In this document: positions 2,710-18,391 of the stretch, one piece after another
Layout of the letters: every line of letters starts with the position of its first letter
How positions within the stretch are numbered: the first letter of the stretch is position 1
IMG/VR virus record: IMGVR_UViG_3300020429_000529
Span: 454,762-498,568 of that record
Length of the DNA stretch: 43,807 nucleotides
DNA from: a virus
Direction: 5' to 3' (one strand)
The notes under the pieces: model-generated
Told to the model about the DNA's origin: nothing
Seen by the model: the letters and a program-made list of their open reading frames with translations, nothing else
Databases searched by the model: none
Position numbers and translations under genes: made by a program

Positions 2710-2835
2710 GTGAGTATTGCCACTGACGGGTTGGCCGTTGGCGGCATAGTAACGAAGGGACGGAGTTGAAAGCAGTCTTTAGCTCTCGTCTTTGGAAGAC
2801 TCCAAACCTGACTGCATGACGAAGGATGGAAGCAA

Positions 2836-3504
2836 ATGGCTTCGAAGAAGAACAGCGGCAACGGCGGCTCCGGCGGTTCCACCCCGACCCTCGACAGCGC
2901 GACGACCGGCGCGATCGAGCAGCTTACCTCGGTCGCTCAGGGCGCTGTCGCGACTGCCCAGACTCACTCCGAGGCGCTCGCCACGGCGCAGACGGGCCTC
3001 GATGAGGCGATCGCTCAGGCGACGGCTGCCAACGAGCGGATCGTCGCTCTCGGCGGCACGCCCATCGAGATCCCCTCGTCCAACGGAACGGCGACGGCGA
3101 CCGCTCCGAGGCGTCGGCGCAACAGCGGCGGTCGGTCGAGTTCGAGCGCGCCTCGTACCAGCGGTCGGCGTCGTCCTCGCAACCCCTACGACTTCCCGAC
3201 CAGCATTCTGATCGCGATGGCTGGCAGTCGCGTCGGCACCGAGTTCGACAACGCTGCGATCCAGGCGGCGCTCCGCATCAACCAGGACGGCGGCTTCCGT
3301 ACCAACGCCAACGAGACCTCGCTGCGGACGCAGATCACGCAGAACATCGGGCGCGTCATGGACGGCAACCACGAGGCTCCGAAGGGTTCGTTCGTCCAGG
3401 TCCGTCGCGGCGTCTACGCCATCACCTCCGAGGGCAAGGCGTTCGTCAAGGGCTGCTCCCTCGCCGATGCGGTCGAGGCCGACGAGAGCGAGTCGTCCGA
3501 CTGA
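2836..3504 (+). CDS. DNA-binding protein with a Gly/Ser/Arg-rich N-terminus and a C-terminal Mrr_N-like winged helix
   Basis: Shine-Dalgarno site AAGGA. The C-terminus reads ...RTQITQNIGRVMDG...VQVRRGVYAITSEGKAFV, which matches the Mrr N-terminal winged-helix pattern. An RRRR/RRRPR tract is present. A terminator follows. Confidence 0.7.
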   Translation: MASKKNSGNGGSGGSTPTLDSATTGAIEQLTSVAQGAVATAQTHSEALATAQTGLDEAIAQATAANERIVALGGTPIEIPSSNGTATATAPRRRRNSGGRSSSSAPRTSGRRRPRNPYDFPTSILIAMAGSRVGTEFDNAAIQAALRINQDGGFRTNANETSLRTQITQNIGRVMDGNHEAPKGSFVQVRRGVYAITSEGKAFVKGCSLADAVEADESESSD

Positions 3505-3529
3505 CGACAGCCTCGGGCACGACTTCAAG

Positions 3530-3561
3530 GCCGTCGCTCCTTCGGGGGCGGCGGCTTTTTT
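3530..3561 (+). terminator. rho-independent terminator
   Basis: GCCGTCGCTCC, TTCG loop, GGGGCGGCGGC, then TTTTTT. Confidence 0.75.
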
Positions 3562-3587
3562 GCGCGAAATCCGATCGTTGGGGTTAT

Positions 3588-3599
3588 CAAAGATAGGTG
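3588..3599 (+). promoter_or_regulatory. CAAAGATAGGTG 12-mer, copy 1
   Basis: Exact 12-mer, downstream of the 3530-3561 terminator. Confidence 0.6.
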
Positions 3600-3845
3600 G
3601 GCGGCGTATACATAGTGGAGGGGAAGGATTCCTCTAACTGGGGCCTCGGCGCTATGGAGTTGGCGTCGGGGCCTTTTTCTTTCCGCATCTGCCCATGAGG
3701 GCTGTCTCGCTGACATCTATGGCAGACGGCTTCTCCTTGCCGTTGGGAAACTCGGTCGGCGGCGTCTCGTCGGGCGTCGTCGGCTTTACTCGCCACTGAC
3801 GGGCGGAACAATCGGGCATTTGCGTCATTCCCTGAAAGGACTCGG

Positions 3846-5405
3846 ATGCCTCAGATCACCCTCCCCAAATCGTTCTTCACCAAAGAGCGCGACAATCTCT
3901 ACTCTGACTGGCGGACCGCGTTCTGGCGCGAGGACTTCCAGAACAGCATCGACGCGGGCGCAACCGAGATCCGTATCTCCTTCGAGCAGATGGGAGATGA
4001 TCTCGCTGTCGAGTTCATCGACAATGGCTGCGGCATGACCCGAGATGTCATCGAGAATGTCTTTTTCGCGCTCGGAGAGACCACCAAGACCGGCAGCACG
4101 ACAGGCGGCTTCGGACGCGCCCGCATTCTGACATGCTTCGCTATGGGCTCTTACGAGTTCTGGACTGGCAACCTGCATGTTACGGGCGATGGCGCAAACT
4201 ACAACATCAACGACAACCAGCCTCATGTCAGCGGATGCCGCTTCCGAGTCGTCATCAACAACGAGACGGCAGAGAAGATGCGGACGGCGCTGAAGAAGGT
4301 TCTGCTGATGTCGCAGATGTCCTGCCATGTCTTCGTCGATGGCGAGCGTTGGACGAACTGGCTCCACAAGCGCCGGCTCGTCAAGACTGCGAGCTACGGC
4401 AGCATCCATGTCAACAAGAACGGACAGTTCACGAACCAGGTTATCGTCCGAGTCAATGGTCTTTGGATGTATTCCATCTACTGCGAGGCCAAGGCGCAGG
4501 TGATCGTCGAGATCGATCCGACCAAGAGCCGAGAGGTTTTGACCGTCAACCGAGACGGCATGCACTACAACTACAGCAACGACCTGCAATCATTCATCAA
4601 CGAGTTGGCTGTCGATACTCGATCGGCGCTGCGGGCACGCAGGCGCAAGACTCGGCTCATCGAAGGAACCGGCGTTCATACGACATCCCGTCCCATCGAC
4701 ATCCCGCAGAACGATTGGGAGGAAACCGCTCCTTCTGACACGATCTCTGTCGGCAACAATGTCGCTGTCGCTGCTGGCGGTACGATCGCCGCTGCGATCC
4801 AGGTCAACAGAGCGCAGTCGGTTCATGCCAACGAGGTTGAGTCTGAGATCATCAAGGGAGAGCAGATCGAGACTGGTCTGCCTGCGATCTACATCAACGA
4901 CGAGACCGATCCGATGGATCTGTCCCATGCGGCTGTTCGCAAGATCATCGACAACTTCGACCCGACCCGTTGGGTGCATGCGGTCAAGAAGGTTCGCGGG
5001 CACGAGCAGCCCTACCGCAAGGGAGCGAACTATCTCAAGCTGCTGATCGCATGGGAGGCATGTTGTCTTGAGGCGATCAAGGCGCTGCTGAACACGGACT
5101 ACGCTCCGCAGCAGTTGCGCTGGTTGGTCGGTTGGACGTTCTCTTTCGAGGACGGCGCATGTCATGTTGGTCTGTCGGAGGGTCATGCTCTTTGCTTGAA
5201 CCCTGTCAAGAAGGACGGCAAGCTGCGCTACAAGACCAGAGATCGCAGCGATCAGATTCGTCTGATGGCTCTTGCCAAGCATGAGGTTGCGCATGTCATC
5301 GTTGGTCCCCATAATGAGGACTATGCGGCGGTATTGACAGCAATCGACAGTCACTTCGATGCGCAGTCATGTTTCAAGGCGATTCGTCAAGCGCTTGCTG
5401 CATAA
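3846..5405 (+). CDS. GHKL-family (HATPase_c) ATPase-domain protein with a C-terminal HExxH motif
   Basis: Bergerat-fold motifs are present: EDFQNSIDAG, DNGCGM and GGFGRARIL. The C-terminus contains KHEVAHVIVGPH. A Shine-Dalgarno site AAAGGA precedes the start. Confidence 0.7.
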   Translation: MPQITLPKSFFTKERDNLYSDWRTAFWREDFQNSIDAGATEIRISFEQMGDDLAVEFIDNGCGMTRDVIENVFFALGETTKTGSTTGGFGRARILTCFAMGSYEFWTGNLHVTGDGANYNINDNQPHVSGCRFRVVINNETAEKMRTALKKVLLMSQMSCHVFVDGERWTNWLHKRRLVKTASYGSIHVNKNGQFTNQVIVRVNGLWMYSIYCEAKAQVIVEIDPTKSREVLTVNRDGMHYNYSNDLQSFINELAVDTRSALRARRRKTRLIEGTGVHTTSRPIDIPQNDWEETAPSDTISVGNNVAVAAGGTIAAAIQVNRAQSVHANEVESEIIKGEQIETGLPAIYINDETDPMDLSHAAVRKIIDNFDPTRWVHAVKKVRGHEQPYRKGANYLKLLIAWEACCLEAIKALLNTDYAPQQLRWLVGWTFSFEDGACHVGLSEGHALCLNPVKKDGKLRYKTRDRSDQIRLMALAKHEVAHVIVGPHNEDYAAVLTAIDSHFDAQSCFKAIRQALAA

Positions 5406-6383: not shown

Positions 6384-6626
6384 ATGCATGAAGGCCCTCA
6401 AAAGAAGCAGAAGAAGCAGAAGACGACCAAGATGCAATACATGGTCTGGTGGAAGCCAGACGGCAAGAAGCGTCTTGAGTTCGGTCCTGTCTACAACAAG
6501 AAGGTAGCGAAGCGGGACGCTTTCCATTACCAGGCTCTCTACGGAGAAGCAAACGCTGGCTGGGAAGTCTACGATCCGAATCGAGATCGTCCTCGTCGAG
6601 ACTATCGGAGCAGGCGGTACGACTGA
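6384..6626 (+). CDS. small Lys-rich hypothetical protein (80 aa)
   Basis: GC3 is high. The stop overlaps the next start (ATGA). Confidence 0.5.
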   Translation: MHEGPQKKQKKQKTTKMQYMVWWKPDGKKRLEFGPVYNKKVAKRDAFHYQALYGEANAGWEVYDPNRDRPRRDYRSRRYD

Positions 6627-7264
6627 TGAAGGTGCTGGGCGACATCCATGGTCGCCTGCATGAACTCGCTCGGGTCATGAGATCCGTTGAGGGCGAAGTT
6701 CTCTGTGTAGGCGATGTAGGCATCGGATTCTCTGGCGTTGGCCAGAACCCATCGCTATCGAAGCGCTTCTGGTTTATCCGCGGCAACCATGACTGGCCCT
6801 ACTGGTGCAAGAAGCACCCGCAGTTCGCTGCCGACTACGGCATGTGGCGGGGCGTCTTCGTCATCGGAGGAGCCCGCTCGGTCGATCAGGCTGACAGGGT
6901 TGAGGGCAAGTCTTGGTGGCGGGATGAGGAGCTTTCTCATCGCGAGTGCGAAGAGGCGCTGGCTCTCTACGAGCAGGCGAAACCCAGGGTTGTCGTGTCG
7001 CATGACTGTCCCTTCAGCATTCAGCCTGAACTGAAGCGCCATGTGGTCAAGGGTAATCCGTTCCTTGAGGTATACGGCGAGCCTCGTCCGTATCCGCAGA
7101 CGGTCATGATGGACAAGATGTTGGAGGTTCATCAACCTGATCTTTGGTTGTTCGGGCACTGGCATACGAAATGGCAGAAGCAGGTTGGGAAGACGCTGTT
7201 CCGTTGCGTACACATCTTCGAGCTTGTAGACATCCCTGAGGAGCTACTTGATGGGGCGACGTGA
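6626..7264 (+). CDS. calcineurin-like metallophosphoesterase (Ser/Thr phosphatase family)
   Basis: GDIHG, VGDVG, GNHD and GHWH motifs are present. Confidence 0.8.
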   Translation: MKVLGDIHGRLHELARVMRSVEGEVLCVGDVGIGFSGVGQNPSLSKRFWFIRGNHDWPYWCKKHPQFAADYGMWRGVFVIGGARSVDQADRVEGKSWWRDEELSHRECEEALALYEQAKPRVVVSHDCPFSIQPELKRHVVKGNPFLEVYGEPRPYPQTVMMDKMLEVHQPDLWLFGHWHTKWQKQVGKTLFRCVHIFELVDIPEELLDGAT

Positions 7265-11114: not shown

Positions 11115-11189
11115 GGGCGGGTAGCTCAATTGGCCAGAGCGCCTGGTTTACACCCAGGAGGTTTGAGGGTTCGAGTCCCTCCTCGCCTA
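11115..11189 (+). tRNA. tRNA-Val (anticodon TAC)
   Basis: The loop is TTTACAC and the T-loop is TTCGAGT. The variable loop appears to be 6 nt. Confidence 0.65.
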
Positions 11190-11205
11190 CTTCAGACATT
11201 TGATG

Positions 11206-11287
11206 GTGGCCTTGGCAGATAGGCAATGCACCTGGTTGTGGTCCAGGGTCCGTAAGGACAATGCGGGTTCGAATCCCGTAGGTCACC
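11206..11287 (+). tRNA. class-II tRNA-like gene (long variable arm) with anticodon GTG, identity uncertain
   Basis: The anticodon arm is CCTGG, TTGTGGT, CCAGG. The variable arm is 15 nt, the D stem is 3 bp, the T-loop is TTCGAAT and the discriminator is C. Confidence 0.45.
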
Positions 11288-11299
11288 CTTTAGATAGAC

Positions 11300-11371
11300 A
11301 GGCTTGTAGCTCAGCGGCAGAGCGCTCCCCTGATAAGGGAGAGGACGGGATCTCGGAATTCCCCAAGCCTA
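11300..11371 (+). tRNA. tRNA-Ile (anticodon GAT)-like with a degenerate T-loop
   Basis: The acceptor stem and anticodon arm are nearly identical to bacterial tRNA-Ile(GAU). The T-loop is CTCGGAA and lacks T54 and A58. Confidence 0.45.
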
Positions 11372-11372
11372 T

Positions 11373-11457
11373 TGGGTCGTGCGCCGAATTGGTTAGGCAC
11401 CCGACTGATAATCGGGGAGCGTTAAGCTCTATGCAGGTTCGAGTCCTGTCGGCCCTA
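11373..11457 (+). tRNA. class-II tRNA-like gene with anticodon GAT, identity uncertain
   Basis: The anticodon arm is CCCGA, CTGATAA, TCGGG. The 16-nt variable arm forms a hairpin. Position 1:72 is a mismatch. Confidence 0.4.
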
Positions 11458-11476
11458 TTGACGATACACTGAATGA

Positions 11477-11550
11477 GGCCCCTTAGCTCAGTTGGCCAGA
11501 GCGCTTGCATGACACGCAAGAGGCCGTTGGTTCGAGTCCAACAGGGGTCA
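11477..11550 (+). tRNA. tRNA-Val (anticodon GAC)
   Basis: Clean class-I cloverleaf. The loop is ATGACAC. Confidence 0.75.
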
Positions 11551-11555
11551 TTCGG

Positions 11556-11630
11556 GGAGCAGGTACAAGTTAGTCCACATTCCGCGGATGCGGAGCGACG
11601 TTGGCTCAAGATACCTGCTCCCTCTTTTTC
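11556..11630 (+). terminator. long imperfect hairpin (~70 nt) followed by TCTTTTTC
   Basis: GGAGCAGGTA pairs with TACCTGCTCC, with a nested CCGCGGATGCGG hairpin. A T-tract follows. Confidence 0.45.
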
Positions 11631-11632
11631 AT

Positions 11633-11707
11633 GGGGGCGTAGCTTAGCTGGCCCAAAGCATACGACTCATAATCGTGAGATCGTCGGTTCGAATCCGACC
11701 GCCCCTA
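11633..11707 (+). tRNA. tRNA-Met (anticodon CAT), elongator or Ile2-like
   Basis: The loop is CTCATAA. There are no initiator features such as a C1:A72 mismatch or GGG/CCC pairs. Confidence 0.7.
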
Positions 11708-12064
11708 CTTTTCAGGCACGCATAAACCCAAGCGCAACAACGACTTGCTCCTCGGAGCCGAAAAAAGTCGCGCAGAAAGACCACTGACGCTTGAAGGTGC
11801 AATGAAGATTGGGTATACTTCTCGAACCGCCGCAGCGAGCAGCAGCGAGCTACGACGGACTTTGGCAACCGAATACTGAACGATGCCCCGACGCTCATCT
11901 GAGACGATCTTCGGATCAACTGAGCCGAGCTTAGGGGCACCTTGGGGCTGAAAGCCGAACCGACAAGAATGGTCGATTTAGTACGAGCAGAGTCGTGAAA
12001 CACTGATCTGCGAAGGACGGACATACCGATCATCATTCAGTAAGAAAGTCGTAGGCCCCGCCTT

Positions 12065-12231
12065 GGGACGGTAGCTCAGCGAAGATGACCTTCGGGTCTA
12101 AGGAGCGCCGCTCGCCAACGATCTCTTTGGAGACCATGCTTCTCCCTTTGCCTTGGTCGGCTGGGGAAACAAGAAGTACCCGAGAGATCGTTGGAGAGCG
12201 GAGGTCGGAGGTTCAAATCCTCCCCGTCCCA
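12065..12231 (+). ncRNA. giant tRNA-shaped RNA 1 (~167 nt)
   Basis: Perfect 7-bp acceptor stem GGGACGG/CCGTCCC. TA plus D-stem GCTC/GAGC, with a UUCG hairpin inserted in the D-loop. About 17-bp anticodon-position helix, CCGCTC-CCAACGATCTC with GAGATCGTTGG-GAGCGG, enclosing 58 nt. Variable loop AGGTC. Canonical T-arm GGAGG, TTCAAAT, CCTCC. Confidence 0.55.
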
Positions 12232-12237
12232 CTTCTT

Positions 12238-12403
12238 GCGGCGATAGCTCAGCGAAGAAGCGATCACCTTCGGGAGATCGTCAAGGAGCGCTGTTCCGCT
12301 TGAAGAACCGTTCGTACCTGTCCCGCCTGGCACTGACCTCGCGGCCTGGACAACGGCTCTTCAAATGGAACAGAGGTCGGGAGTTCAAATCTCTCTCGCC
12401 GCT
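12238..12403 (+). ncRNA. giant tRNA-shaped RNA 2 (~166 nt)
   Basis: Same architecture as giant 1. Acceptor stem GCGGCGA/TCGCCGC. UUCG hairpin in the D-loop. About 20-bp helix CTGTTCCGCTTGAAGAACCG with CGGCTCTTCAAATGGAACAG, enclosing 43 nt that include GCACTGACC. Variable loop AGGTC. T-loop TTCAAAT. Confidence 0.55.
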
Positions 12404-12405
12404 TT

Positions 12406-13470
12406 AGATTGGCCCAACAGCAATGGGAAAGCCAATCGACATACGCAGAGATCCGAACCTGCTTGCAGAAAGGATCAAAGCTTCAAGATTCAGGTACGAA
12501 TAGATGGAAACATCTTCAAATACCTGAGTACGCCTCAGTTCGCTATGTCTCGTACATGACGGCTGAGCGAGCAAGAAACCGAAAGGGAAACTTGCTTGAG
12601 GCACACCAACTTGAGAGAGTTGGAAGCATGTGGCCGCTAACGGGCACTGACCGGCGACGGTCTGAGCAACGAGCGACAGTCATCCGAGCGAGGAAACTCG
12701 TTGGGATGGCTTTCACCAAGGCTTGTCAGTTCAACCTTCATGGTGACATAGAAGAACTGACCTCTGACTGGTCCCGGTCAGCCAAAAGGGACAGGCATGT
12801 TGGCATACCTGAGTATGTCCTACCGCCTCGTTCCAGACGCGTGGGTCGTCTGTTCGCCCTCTGCACGTTCTTCGAACCTGCATGGTGACAACGGCTTGAA
12901 AATATGGCTCATGGTCGAGTCAAACACGGTCCCTTGGTTCAGGCTTAACGGGTAGGCCTCAAACGGCCAACAGTCTGCGTCAGCGTTAAAAGCGTAACGC
13001 AGGCTTTCCCAATACCTTGCCAAGCTCTCAAAGAGGGAGGGCAGCAAGGCTCTGGCTGCTCACGGCTAAACCAAGAGTGAGAGGCAGTTCATGCCTTCAT
13101 AAGACTCGGCGGCCTTCCTTCGATGCCTGGTAAACATCGATGAGCGGAGGATGCCTGTGTCAATGTAGAAATGGGCTACAGAGGTCCGGGTGAGAAACCC
13201 GGCCCTTCTGTTTTCCGCAGTCGAATGCGCAATACCTGATCTCTGCCGCCCTTGGAAAAGGCACGATCAACGCAGAAGGATGGGCGCTTCGACGGTCGAG
13301 ATCAGTTCGGCGAATGTTCTGCAGAACTCGTCGGGCACGGAGATGTGACGGCTTCAATCCGTCATGGCGAGTTTCGATTCTCGTCCTCGGTTTTCCTCAG
13401 CGGCGGGCGTCGATGGCTACGGCGCAGCAGAGACTCAAGCCCCTTGTCTTCGGACGAGGGGCTTTTTTCG
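12406..13470 (+). ncRNA. about 1 kb region with poor coding potential, ending in a strong terminator. Candidate long structured RNA or regulatory region.
   Basis: The only long ORF, 12409-12888, lacks the GC3 bias seen in every accepted gene. Hairpins are present, for example GATTGGC...GCCAATC at 12406-12437. Terminator at 13438-13468. Confidence 0.3.
13438..13468 (+). terminator. rho-independent terminator
   Basis: GCCCCTTGTC, TTCG loop, GACGAGGGGC, then TTTTTTCG. Confidence 0.8.
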
Positions 13471-17224: not shown

Positions 17225-17457
17225 AGTATTACCTGGTCTTTGTTACGGGCTGCACTGAGCCGTCCCATGAAGCAGTCGATTCGCATGAGCATGGCCTGCG
17301 CCGCTACTGCGAAGACCTCATCAGCGGCGAATGCGATGAGGGCACTGATTGCGCCTTCATGCTTCAGATCGACGACAAGGGAGAGCCCAACACCTACGCT
17401 TTCTCGAACTCGGAGGTCGAGGAGATGCGGGCTCAGTTGGAAGGAGACCCCGAATGA
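17221..17457 (+). CDS. hypothetical protein (78 aa)
   Basis: ATGA overlap with the upstream gene. Confidence 0.5.
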   Translation: MKYYLVFVTGCTEPSHEAVDSHEHGLRRYCEDLISGECDEGTDCAFMLQIDDKGEPNTYAFSNSEVEEMRAQLEGDPE

Positions 17458-17696
17458 GCAAGAGAACTGTCCTTCTCCGCTCGGACCATCCTGGCGAGGA
17501 CGAGGCGTACACCATCTGCGCTGTCGAGATCGACACCGATTCGATCACTCTCGATGACTTCGAGAAGCGGGCCACAGCCATGATGGACGAGATTCGGGAG
17601 CGTCCCGAGTACGAGGACAGCGAACTTGTCGTCGCCCTCGAACGCGCTGGCTTCAGCGTCGTTCCTGCGCCGACCGAGATCATCGTCCGCAGTTGA
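17454..17696 (+). CDS. hypothetical protein (80 aa)
   Basis: ATGAGCAAG start overlaps the upstream stop. The stop lies inside TGACACTGAC. Confidence 0.5.
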   Translation: MSKRTVLLRSDHPGEDEAYTICAVEIDTDSITLDDFEKRATAMMDEIRERPEYEDSELVVALERAGFSVVPAPTEIIVRS

Positions 17697-17740
17697 CACT
17701 GACGATCCGGCGACGGGTCAGAAGCGAAGGAGCAACAACT

Positions 17741-18391
17741 ATGGACGACTCAGGTCAAACCCAACTCGCAGACGGAACCACTCGCATCCAGTTCGTGCCG
17801 ACGCATCAGCAGTTGACCAAGATCGCTGATGACATGGCGGGCCTTGTTGATACCTACAGTCACAATGCGCCCGAAATCGACGCAAATCTCGGCAGCGACA
17901 GGTTCAGAAGGCGAGCGAGAGAACTCGAACTTGATATCGAGCAGCTTCGGCTCATCGCCGCCAAGCTCGAACGAGAGCCTGATCCTGGCGTTCTGGCTGA
18001 TCGCATCTACAACTGGCTCAAGGACTGGGTGACCGCAACTTTCGCGGGCAAGGACATGACCAAGAGCGGTCCCTTCCTGACGCCTGGCTTCGTCCACAAC
18101 GCCATCCTCGACATCCTGACCGATCAGTACCGCCATCTCGACTCTGTTCAGCGAGAAGCGATCACCGACATGACGGCGCAAGTCATGGTCGCCCGAGGCA
18201 ACGATAATGTCACGCTGCTTACGGGCACCGGCCCCGCGAGGGCGTTGATGGTTCGAGAGGGTTGGTCGATTGCGCAGATGCTCGAATACTGCGGCTTCGA
18301 CGAGGGCAACCTTCGTCAGCGGCTCGACTTCGATCCCGACACCGGCGGAGATTGGTACACTGACGATGACGACGAGGCAGAGAGCGAATGA
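17741..18391 (+). CDS. hypothetical protein (216 aa)
   Basis: GAAGGAGC Shine-Dalgarno site. The start was moved in from the ORF-track TTG. Confidence 0.6.
   Translation: MDDSGQTQLADGTTRIQFVPTHQQLTKIADDMAGLVDTYSHNAPEIDANLGSDRFRRRARELELDIEQLRLIAAKLEREPDPGVLADRIYNWLKDWVTATFAGKDMTKSGPFLTPGFVHNAILDILTDQYRHLDSVQREAITDMTAQVMVARGNDNVTLLTGTGPARALMVREGWSIAQMLEYCGFDEGNLRQRLDFDPDTGGDWYTDDDDEAESE

Follow-up and report, generated by a model that had tools for sequence, protein, structure and literature searches.

Giant tRNA-like RNA genes with a long helix in place of the anticodon arm in the tRNA array of a marine megaphage

The window analyzed here is a stretch of 43,807 nucleotides (nt) of the IMG/VR virus record IMGVR_UViG_3300020429_000529 (positions 454,762–498,568), part of a ~500-kb phage contig. 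At positions 12065–12403, it carries two tandem elements shaped like transfer RNA (tRNA), giant 1 (g1) and giant 2 (g2), in which a helix with an apical module stands where the anticodon arm is expected and no anticodon loop is present. The question raised by this locus is what such RNAs are, and what they could do other than decode. They are very probably non-decoding tRNA mimics and almost certainly cannot decode codons. They apparently belong to an undescribed, widespread class of phage tRNA look-alikes, and add to the known tRNA mimics a form that has a demonstrable wider family and a sequence signature that can be tested. The best explanation of the whole, which we regard as evenly balanced between right and wrong, is that g1 and g2 would be genes for stable mimics of this kind, with an off-ribosome role exerted through the tRNA body.

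The two giants lie 6 nt apart and share a perfect acceptor stem of 7 base pairs (bp) followed by a discriminator base, U8-A9, a GCUC/GAGC D-stem, G26, an AGGUC variable loop, and a 5-bp T-stem closed by a UUCAAAU loop. A hairpin capped by UUCG is inserted into the D-loop of both. An earlier description made from the DNA letters (hereafter the sequence-only reading) had listed the acceptor, U8/A9, the D-stem, AGGTC, the T-arm and the UUCG hairpin, and each was found in its place when the coordinates were checked. The components are as follows.

12065..12231, + strand: g1, giant tRNA-like RNA 1, 167 nt including discriminator A
12065–12071 (GGGACGG) and 12224–12230 (CCGTCCC), + strand: g1 acceptor stem, discriminator A at 12231
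12072–12073, + strand: TA of g1
12074–12077 (GCTC) and 12103–12106 (GAGC), + strand: g1 D-stem, enclosing a 25-nt D-loop
12087..12098, + strand: g1 D-loop insertion hairpin of 4 bp, GACC-TTCG-GGTC (GACC-UUCG-GGUC in the RNA)
12107, + strand: G26 of g1
12108..12201, + strand: g1 extended arm, seen as inverted repeat I1 and in the minimum-free-energy (MFE) fold, with covarying basal pairs
12202–12206, + strand: g1 variable loop, AGGTC
12207–12223, + strand: g1 T-arm, GGAGG-TTCAAAT-CCTCC
12238..12403, + strand: g2, giant tRNA-like RNA 2, 166 nt including discriminator U
12238–12244 (GCGGCGA) and 12396–12402 (TCGCCGC), + strand: g2 acceptor stem, discriminator T at 12403
12260..12281, + strand: g2 D-loop hairpin, GCGATCACC-TTCG-GGAGATCGT (GCGAUCACC-UUCG-GGAGAUCGU in the RNA)
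12291..12373, + strand: g2 extended arm, helix strands 12291–12312 and 12352–12373
12374–12378, + strand: g2 variable loop, AGGTC
12379–12395, + strand: g2 T-arm

The arm helix of g1 (strands 12108–12126 and 12183–12201) spans 19 positions with one G·A mismatch and encloses an apical module of 56 nt (12127–12182). That of g2 spans 22 positions, with two mismatches and one G·U pair, and encloses 39 nt (12313–12351), with CACUGAC in the apical loop (12331–12337). The long helices proposed in the sequence-only reading are therefore real features of both copies, and the module sizes of 43–58 nt given there are corrected to 56 and 39 nt. The stem of the g2 D-loop hairpin has 9 positions and one A·A mismatch. 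MFE folds reproduce this architecture, with z-scores of −5.2 (g1) and −2.9 (g2) against dinucleotide shuffles; with small interruptions allowed, the basal helices extend to 21 bp in g1 and 24 bp in g2.

Relatives of this locus were reached through a metallophosphoesterase gene 5 kb upstream (6626–7264), whose homologues are 47–65% identical and lie on syntenic contigs. Giants were located on these contigs by a structural descriptor and a motif search. Six further giants (101–213 nt) were found on related marine megaphage contigs, at syntenic positions at the ends of tRNA arrays.

L024a: 137 nt
L025a: 213 nt
L025b: 200 nt
L028a: 164 nt
L032a: 157 nt
L035a: 101 nt

These six homologues retain every helix through compensatory changes. 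In an 81-column core alignment (A2), 97.3% of cells are paired, compared to 47–55% in slid controls; the percentage is inflated, since five of the six giants were found with a descriptor that requires pairing. Neither the conserved unpaired motifs (UAGCUCAGAGAAGA, AAGGAGCG, AGGUC) nor synteny was part of the descriptor, and L035a was found by motif alone. Double-sided changes occur in 22 of the 28 core pairs, among them all seven in the acceptor and each of the 12 basal pairs in the long helix, and none of 500 shuffles equaled the observed covariation score. U8, A14, G15, G26 and G46 are invariant in the eight giants, and the core also keeps G26/A44. Position 48 is C in six of them, A in L025b and U in L028a. 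The D-loop starts with AG(C/A)GAAGA or consists of AGAGAAA, so that position 19 is an A and G19 is missing.

Two acceptor types identify orthologues: GGGAC... is found in g1, L024a and L025a, and GCGGCGA (5′ strand) in g2 and L028a. The T-stem and acceptor of g1 are the same as those of L024a. Since orthologues with a matching acceptor stem exist for both types, the earlier view of g1 and g2 as paralogous functional RNAs rather than a decaying duplicate is upheld. The arms are only ~30–56% alike in sequence, with the exception of g2 and L032a (64%), whose modules have the block UACCUGUCC.GCCUG in common. Most apical modules are not conserved between relatives. The basal helix measures 19–26 bp in all eight giants despite this turnover. 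In L035a, the arm is a plain 19-bp hairpin with neither an anticodon loop nor an apical module. The D-loop inserts range from none (L024a and L035a) to 64 nt (L025b). Where g1 has its hairpin, inserted after AGCGAAGAU, L025a, L028a and L032a carry unrelated hairpins and L025b its 64-nt insert. A 'GUACCYG' motif of the modules was considered and dropped, as it occupies different structural contexts in different copies.

Two observations concern the surroundings of the homologues. In L024, an ordinary tRNA-Met(CAU) at 17435–17511 lies 2 nt after the giant, in the slot held by g2 in the window; giants and true tRNAs seem to be interchangeable there. Directly upstream of the L028 giant, at 17640–17770, are two direct copies of CCTTCCGCGGCCTCAAAGCCGCGGCCCCATTGAAGC, each with a GC-rich hairpin.

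The possibility that the giants are ordinary tRNA genes with introns or inserts, also entertained in the sequence-only reading, or decaying pseudogenes, is essentially excluded. It would fit their location in a tRNA cluster and the extra hairpins of true tRNAs in this phage (described below), and ARAGORN in intron mode does return models. However, these solutions are forced: they take the D-loop hairpin as the anticodon arm and drop the real D-arm. No single excision gives a consistent U33 and anticodon loop across orthologues, and the arm of L035a is a plain hairpin. The inserts of 56 and 39 nt are too short for a group I intron, as stated earlier, and no intron family matches. Decay is excluded by the compensatory changes, by class-wide conservation, and by comparison with a variant genome that is ~96% identical across an aligned 2.9 kb. 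This variant has no difference from g1 and g2 over 339 nt; the corresponding values per 100 nt are 2.5 in the leader that precedes g1, 5.9 in the ~1-kb region that follows g2, and 7.4 in the tRNA cluster. Such a distribution indicates that g1 and g2 are under strong purifying selection. A Pro-like 'CUUGGAG' loop obtained by excising the g1 arm was rejected because it is absent from L024a and L025a.

Shorter related genes occur in phage tRNA arrays of IMG/VR. L024a and L035a share an uninterrupted D-arm, UAGCUC-AGAGAAA-GAGCG, and an exact scan of IMG/VR with their 18-mer TAGCTCAGAGAAAGAGCG identified 35 contigs with 31 distinct genes of 67–110 nt. All 31 are located in phage tRNA arrays, and 30 are without a canonical anticodon arm. 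The signature of this class (A19 class) comprises the D-arm UAGCUC-AGAGAA(A)-GAGC-G with A19, an AGGUC variable loop, a non-canonical anticodon arm and a place in a phage tRNA array. Its genes have 7-bp acceptors, a mostly encoded CCA, the AGGUC loop (with variants) and a T-arm. The arms are irregular hairpins of 5–9 bp closed by tetraloops (UUCG or GNRA) or by odd loops, such as CCUGGG-UUCG-CCCAGG, CGCCGGC-GCAA-GCCGGGG and CAAGG-AG-UCC-GUAA-GGA-AAAA-CCUUG. The helices covary, with 96.5% of cells paired. ARAGORN made no call for 12 of the 31 genes, gave 'anticodons' of 2 or 4 nt in eight, and assigned an amino acid in 11.

A control 18-mer with G19 (AGAGGAA) retrieved 87 distinct genes; a canonical arm is present in 66, among which 14 different anticodons occur. 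Position 56 is C in all 87, compared to C in 18, U in eight, A in four and G in one of the A19 set (Fisher p = 3e-13 and 3e-9 for the contrasts between the sets). Thus, non-canonical arms (30/31 versus 21/87) and a free rather than fixed position 56 go together, which indicates that the anticodon loop and the G19:C56 elbow pair were lost in a coupled manner. The 21 control genes (control loci L076–L195) that also fail the test for a canonical anticodon arm include some of up to 158 nt, and further non-canonical forms may exist in phage tRNA arrays.

A covariance model (R1) built from 22 of the IMG/VR short forms only was used to relate the giants to this class. L035a and L024a score 73 and 72.8 bits, respectively, while true tRNAs in the megaphage loci reach at most 59.7. 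Full-length matches at 45–51 bits were obtained for g2 (48.8 bits, a score within the true-tRNA range), L028a and L032a. The membership of the window copies rests on the chain of orthology and, for g1, on the acceptor and T-stem in common with L024a. The giants can therefore be regarded as extreme representatives of a broader group of phage tRNA-like genes that have no anticodon. Proteins encoded around the 35 IMG/VR loci were clustered and gave no universal neighbor; the largest clusters, with 4–6 loci each, are HNH, CoaD-like, vWA and Rsr-like proteins.

Neither annotation tools nor described families account for the giants. With default settings, ARAGORN found 12 ordinary tRNAs in the window and called neither g1 nor g2, nor any transfer-messenger RNA (tmRNA). 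Rfam models at the gathering threshold gave 13 tRNAs in the window and none at g1 or g2; at E ≤ 10, only a 14.9-bit T-arm fragment was matched in g1 and nothing in g2 (the tRNA threshold is 29 bits). No tmRNA, YrlA, intron or ribozyme family matched at E ≤ 10 between 11700 and 12900. Anticodon-less phage tRNA-like genes are not described in Rfam 15 or in full-text literature searches of incomplete coverage, in agreement with the earlier suggestion of an undescribed phage family. In a blastn search of phage genomes, no close relative of the window was found among cultured phages; only ordinary tRNAs matched. Patterns specific to the window D-loops (AGCGAAG...) yielded nothing or chance matches in viral, genome and metagenome collections, being too narrow for relatives with AGAGAAG or AGAGAAA. 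The 211-aa protein encoded downstream, when used as an anchor, led only to near-identical genomes or contigs that were too short.

The giants resemble canonical tRNA (RF00005) in the acceptor with its discriminator, U8, A14, G15/C48, the GCUC/GAGC D-stem, G26/A44, AGGUC and the UUCRANU T-loop, as well as in their tRNA-cluster location and U-rich 3′ trailers like those of the neighboring tRNAs. They differ in lacking the 5-bp/7-nt anticodon arm, U33, an anticodon and G19, in the D-loop hairpin, and in their length of 166 nt. The elbow pairing of G18G19 with ψ55/C56 is not found in them.

By position, the closest cultured analogues may be rnaC and rnaD of phage T4 (the species 1 and 2 RNAs), which are 139 and 119 nt long. 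These stable RNAs, not tRNAs themselves, stand in tandem where the tRNA operon of the phage ends; we do not claim homology. A perfect T-arm (CCGGG-UUCGAAU-CCCGG) and a terminal stem form the end of rnaC, but unlike the giants the T4 RNAs have no GCUC/GAGC D-arm, clean 7-bp acceptor or long single arm. The T4 record was not among the matches listed in the blastn search of phage genomes with the window. To our knowledge, no function has been assigned to rnaC or rnaD.

tmRNA (RF00023) also combines an acceptor and T-arm with a long helix in place of the anticodon stem and a non-canonical D-region. It differs in having G3:U70, no D-stem, pseudoknots, a tag open reading frame (ORF) and a length of 260–430 nt. 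In g1 and g2, the third acceptor pair is G3:C70, and neither ARAGORN nor Rfam calls a tmRNA, which bears out the earlier exclusion of this family; that of tRNA-Sec is supported as well. A related idea is that an aminoacyl-tRNA synthetase indifferent to the anticodon charges the giants, the amino acid entering a non-ribosomal reaction, or that the giants serve as a tmRNA-like domain without a tag. The intact acceptor stem, the acceptor sequences kept between orthologues while the arm drifts, and the CCA encoded by most short relatives are consistent with charging. The alignments, read by the established identity rules, reveal no G3:U70 (Ala), G-1 (His) or long variable arm (Ser), and the D-loop lacks the G18G19 geometry used by LeuRS. 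As no tag ORF was called either, we consider charging improbable.

YrlA (RF02553) is itself a non-decoding tRNA mimic, also found in phages, with a D-arm (UAGCUCA...GAGC), a T-arm, an acceptor-like stem and a long stem. The YrlA of M. smegmatis is cut by RNase P and receives CCA, and the Rsr-site motif is GNCGAAN0-1G (PMC4201824). A YrlA gene is expected on the same strand as an rsr (Ro60/TROVE) gene and at most ~4 kb from it. The sequence-only reading found the giants reminiscent of such Y RNAs. In this view they would be partners of Ro60/Rsr in circularly permuted form; the two kinds of RNA do have in common a tRNA-like body plus a long stem. The topology, however, is reversed: in YrlA, the 5′ and 3′ ends form the Rsr-binding long stem and a loop closes the acceptor-like stem, whereas the termini of the giants are at the acceptor. 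GNCGAAN0-1G is absent from the giants. AGCGAAG, one base off and limited to the window, was rejected as an Rsr site since the near match is not conserved, the relatives having AGAGAAG. The YrlA model (gathering threshold 69 bits) had no match over 11700–12900, as noted above. No TROVE domain was among the precomputed Pfam hits of called genes within ±10 kb, and a tblastn search with a phage Rsr-like protein, confined to the window of the 500-kb genome and to the megaphage loci, gave no match. Membership of the Y-RNA family is thus largely refuted, and we judge it highly improbable.

A side observation in the IMG/VR loci of the short relatives touches on the same proteins. Four of the 35 (L055, at 2778–4232; L045, L057 and L073) carry, within a few kb of the A19 gene, the gene of a ~540-aa protein that, by eye, looks like Rsr/Ro60 (TROVE) with a vWA domain. 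Weak YrlA matches of 32–40 bits, under the threshold, occur in three of the 35, two of which (L045 and L055) also carry the Rsr-like protein. These coincidences speak for a Y-RNA connection, but the YrlA-like RNAs are separate genes; the order in L055 is A19 element, YrlA-like RNA, Rsr-like gene.

The engineered 'tRNA scaffold' of Ponchon and Dardel keeps the acceptor, T and D arms and replaces the anticodon stem-loop by an extended hairpin with an insert, as do the giants. tRNA bodies of this design are precisely processed and stable in E. coli (PMC3753655). The scaffold is artificial and has a normal D-loop and elbow, whereas the giants lack G19 and contain a D-loop hairpin. The likeness raises an alternative in which the long double-stranded RNA (dsRNA) arm would be the working part and the tRNA body only a chassis for processing and stability, that is, a natural tRNA scaffold. 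The arm could be an RNase III substrate that frees the apical hairpin, or an uncleaved sponge for a dsRNA-binding protein, for which adenovirus VA RNA is a precedent. The basal helix of about two helical turns, kept in every giant while its sequence turns over, is in line with this alternative, as are the block common to the g2 and L032a modules and the success of the scaffold principle in E. coli. However, arms in the wider class measure only 5–9 bp and carry tetraloops, and the ancestral function therefore did not lie in a long arm; L035a lacks a module altogether, and most modules are unconserved. In addition, the D-arm and acceptor are conserved beyond the needs of a mere chassis. We therefore consider a working dsRNA arm unlikely.

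The giants are part of a larger non-coding unit, whose elements are listed here.

11115–11708: tRNA cluster, with tRNA-Met last, preceding the giants
11791..11819, + strand: sigma-70-like promoter, TTGAAG-17-TATACT, just past the CACTGAC copy at 11782
11820..12064, + strand: leader of ~245 nt upstream of g1, without a called gene
12404..13436, + strand: strongly structured non-coding region of ~1 kb (MFE z = −7.5), without a called gene
13437..13464, + strand: strong intrinsic terminator (12-bp stem, UUCG loop, T-run) that closes the unit

g1 and g2 lie in a gene-free stretch, and the non-coding unit begins just past tRNA-Met, its start probably marked by the promoter-like site. By direct reading, equivalent −35/17/−10 hexamers precede the unit in L024 (TTGCCT-17-TATACT), L031 (TTGACT-17-TAAACT) and L032 (TTGCAG-17-TAAGAT). 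Blocks of the leader such as CGATTTAGT..CGTGAAA..CGAAGGACGGACATA appear to be common to L024 when the two are read side by side, although a blastn comparison reported no match inside 11820..12064. The leader might be a separate RNA, freed by RNase P cleavage at g1. The ~1-kb region has blocks 71–92% identical in L024, L025, L028 and L031, whereas the phosphoesterase proteins of these relatives reach only ~50–65% identity, and the motif GACTGGTCCCGGT is common to L032. Its module GACAUACGCAGAGAUCC..GGAUCAAAGCU is present twice in L024. The region matches no Rfam family. A 15-nt complementarity (I5) between the g2 module and this downstream RNA was discarded, as it is not kept in L032.

GOLLD and ROOL RNAs adjoin phage tRNA islands, tRNAs are sometimes located inside the GOLLD linker, and one marine GOLLD example is downstream of a Met-tRNA (PMC12286853). 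The ~1-kb region has only its setting in common with them, beside a tRNA island and following tRNA-Met; neither the window nor L024 is matched by the Rfam models of GOLLD and ROOL. The mascRNA of MALAT1 and plant mitochondrial t-elements are likewise tRNA-like folds without a functional anticodon beside a long non-coding RNA (ncRNA), and direct RNase P/Z cleavage, but they are eukaryotic or organellar, and GOLLD is a different RNA family. By analogy with these systems, the giants could be punctuation or embedded domains of one ornate ncRNA of ~1.65 kb (leader, g1, g2 and ~1-kb RNA), either as processing signals of the mascRNA or t-element kind or as cargo of a GOLLD-like linker. The unit has a single promoter-like site and a single strong terminator with none seen between, the ~1-kb part is strongly structured, and in L024, L025, L028, L032 and L035 the conserved large RNA again comes after a giant (or a giant plus tRNA-Met). 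In contrast, L031 has the large RNA without giants, and relatives of the giants occur without any large RNA: the short forms sit among ordinary tRNAs, with no GOLLD or ROOL match in the 11 IMG/VR loci scanned (11/11). Punctuation alone would need neither a conserved D-arm nor a 20-bp arm. An embedded-domain role thus appears distinctly unlikely.

We return to a non-decoding mimic acting through its tRNA body. Two features specific to the ribosome, the anticodon loop and G19:C56, are lost while the acceptor/T/D core is constrained, which makes action off the ribosome most likely; conservation of this core, with an arm evolving for shape only, favors a role through the tRNA body. In such a scheme, the giants would be transcribed together with the tRNA and ncRNA operon and cut at the 5′ end by RNase P. 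The 3′ end would be formed by the same pathway as in the neighboring tRNAs; these likewise have U-rich trailers and no encoded CCA (none of the true tRNAs of the window encodes it, and all are followed by such trailers). CCA would then be added, as suggested by the 7-bp acceptor, the T-arm and the type of trailer. The predicted fold is an L shape with one limb longer by about two helical turns or more and with the D-loop inserts jutting from the elbow region. The anticodon limb, a 19–26-bp helix whose tip evolves fast, would extend the structure under selection for shape and not for sequence. The mature RNA may act as a nuclease-resistant competitor or decoy for a tRNA-binding factor, or as a docking platform for it; candidates are a host tRNA-targeting defense or toxin, or a tRNA-processing enzyme. 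This body-mediated decoy or platform mechanism is a tentative suggestion, less secure than the off-ribosome role as such. The decoy or scaffold idea of the sequence-only reading is likewise only a possibility.

Several points weigh against this interpretation. The genes within ±10 kb offer nothing informative as a partner. A decoy role alone leaves the arm of at least 19 bp and the D-loop hairpins of this clade unexplained, and the giants, embedded as they are in the larger non-coding unit, might never be released. As to class membership, L025a, L025b and g1 have no full-length R1 match (g1 has a partial one only), and the A19 set is defined by an exact 18-mer, so that it does not fix the limits of the class. 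The D-arm likeness could stem in part from common ancestry of an AGAGGAA-type tRNA chassis, as exemplified by Vibrio phage Va1, whose D-arm match is a normal tRNA-Asn with AGAGGAA. The inflation of the pairing percentage by the search descriptor belongs here too.

Phage tRNA arrays are usually read as a codon supply or as devices against anticodon nucleases. Conserved non-decoding members would imply other uses, for instance mimicry of tRNA to engage enzymes, toxins or sensors. The coupled loss of the anticodon loop and G19:C56, with the acceptor/T/D core and the CCA end kept, provides a simple sequence rule that separates mimics from true tRNAs; current phage annotation misses the mimics or furnishes them with arbitrary anticodons (an amino acid for 11 of 31 by ARAGORN). 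As natural counterparts of the engineered tRNA scaffold, the giants also illustrate the tolerance of the tRNA fold, whose D-loop accommodates as many as 64 nt and whose arm as many as 133 nt. Their fixed place beside a conserved ~1-kb structured RNA in abundant ocean megaphages offers a concrete target for the role of large ornate RNAs near tRNA islands; the contig is found again in marine assemblies from Tara, ENA and Logan (498,610 and 502,461 bp). The most far-reaching version of these ideas, which we put forward as speculative and doubtful in its entirety, would be an unrecognised widespread class of non-decoding tRNA mimics in large phages, marked by A19, a free position 56 and a nuclease-proof hairpin in place of the anticodon arm, and with a dedicated off-ribosome role, for example neutralizing host defenses that attack or sense the tRNA body or 3′ end. 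In the ~500-kb marine megaphage clade, these would have grown to giants of 100–213 nt with 19–26-bp arms, as part of a new ~1.65-kb ornate GOLLD-like RNA operon with built-in tRNA-like domains.

The CACTGAC motif in the g2 module, to which the sequence-only reading drew attention, is present there, but a special role is unsupported: it is apparently a genome-wide gene-start signal, and the apical loop differs in the homologous module of L032a, though L032 also uses the motif. The window contains 72 copies (e.g. at 1194, 2721, ... 43563), all on the + strand, compared to 5.7 expected. Most are located ~22–24 nt upstream of an ATG, very often ATGAGC, and each gene junction seems to have one such signal where an obvious Shine-Dalgarno sequence would otherwise stand. 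On the + strand, CACTGA[CT] is also enriched in L028 (20 copies), L032 (19) and L035 (8), but not in L024 or L025 (2–3). A second motif, CAAAGATAGGTG, occurs ~12–15 nt upstream of a subset of CACTGAC copies (28692, 31135, 32314, 34466, 36617, 38679 and 41263) and may be a promoter or operator element.

Some true tRNAs of the window are also unusual. tRNA-His(GUG) (11206–11288, 83 nt) and tRNA-Ile(GAU) (11372–11458, 87 nt) carry hairpins in the variable region, GUCC-GUAA-GGAC and GAGC-GUUAA-GCUC, respectively, though both are class I; thus, the decoding tRNAs of this phage also tolerate hairpin expansions. The 96% variant genome has a tRNA-His of normal length at the same site. Six genes between 8338 and 9342 are called tRNA-Leu (UAG, GAG, CAA, GAG, CAG and UAA), two of them only 75–76 nt long and without the long variable arm expected of bacterial tRNA-Leu. 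This Leu-rich tRNA block is kept in all relatives (L024, L025, L028, L031 and L032).

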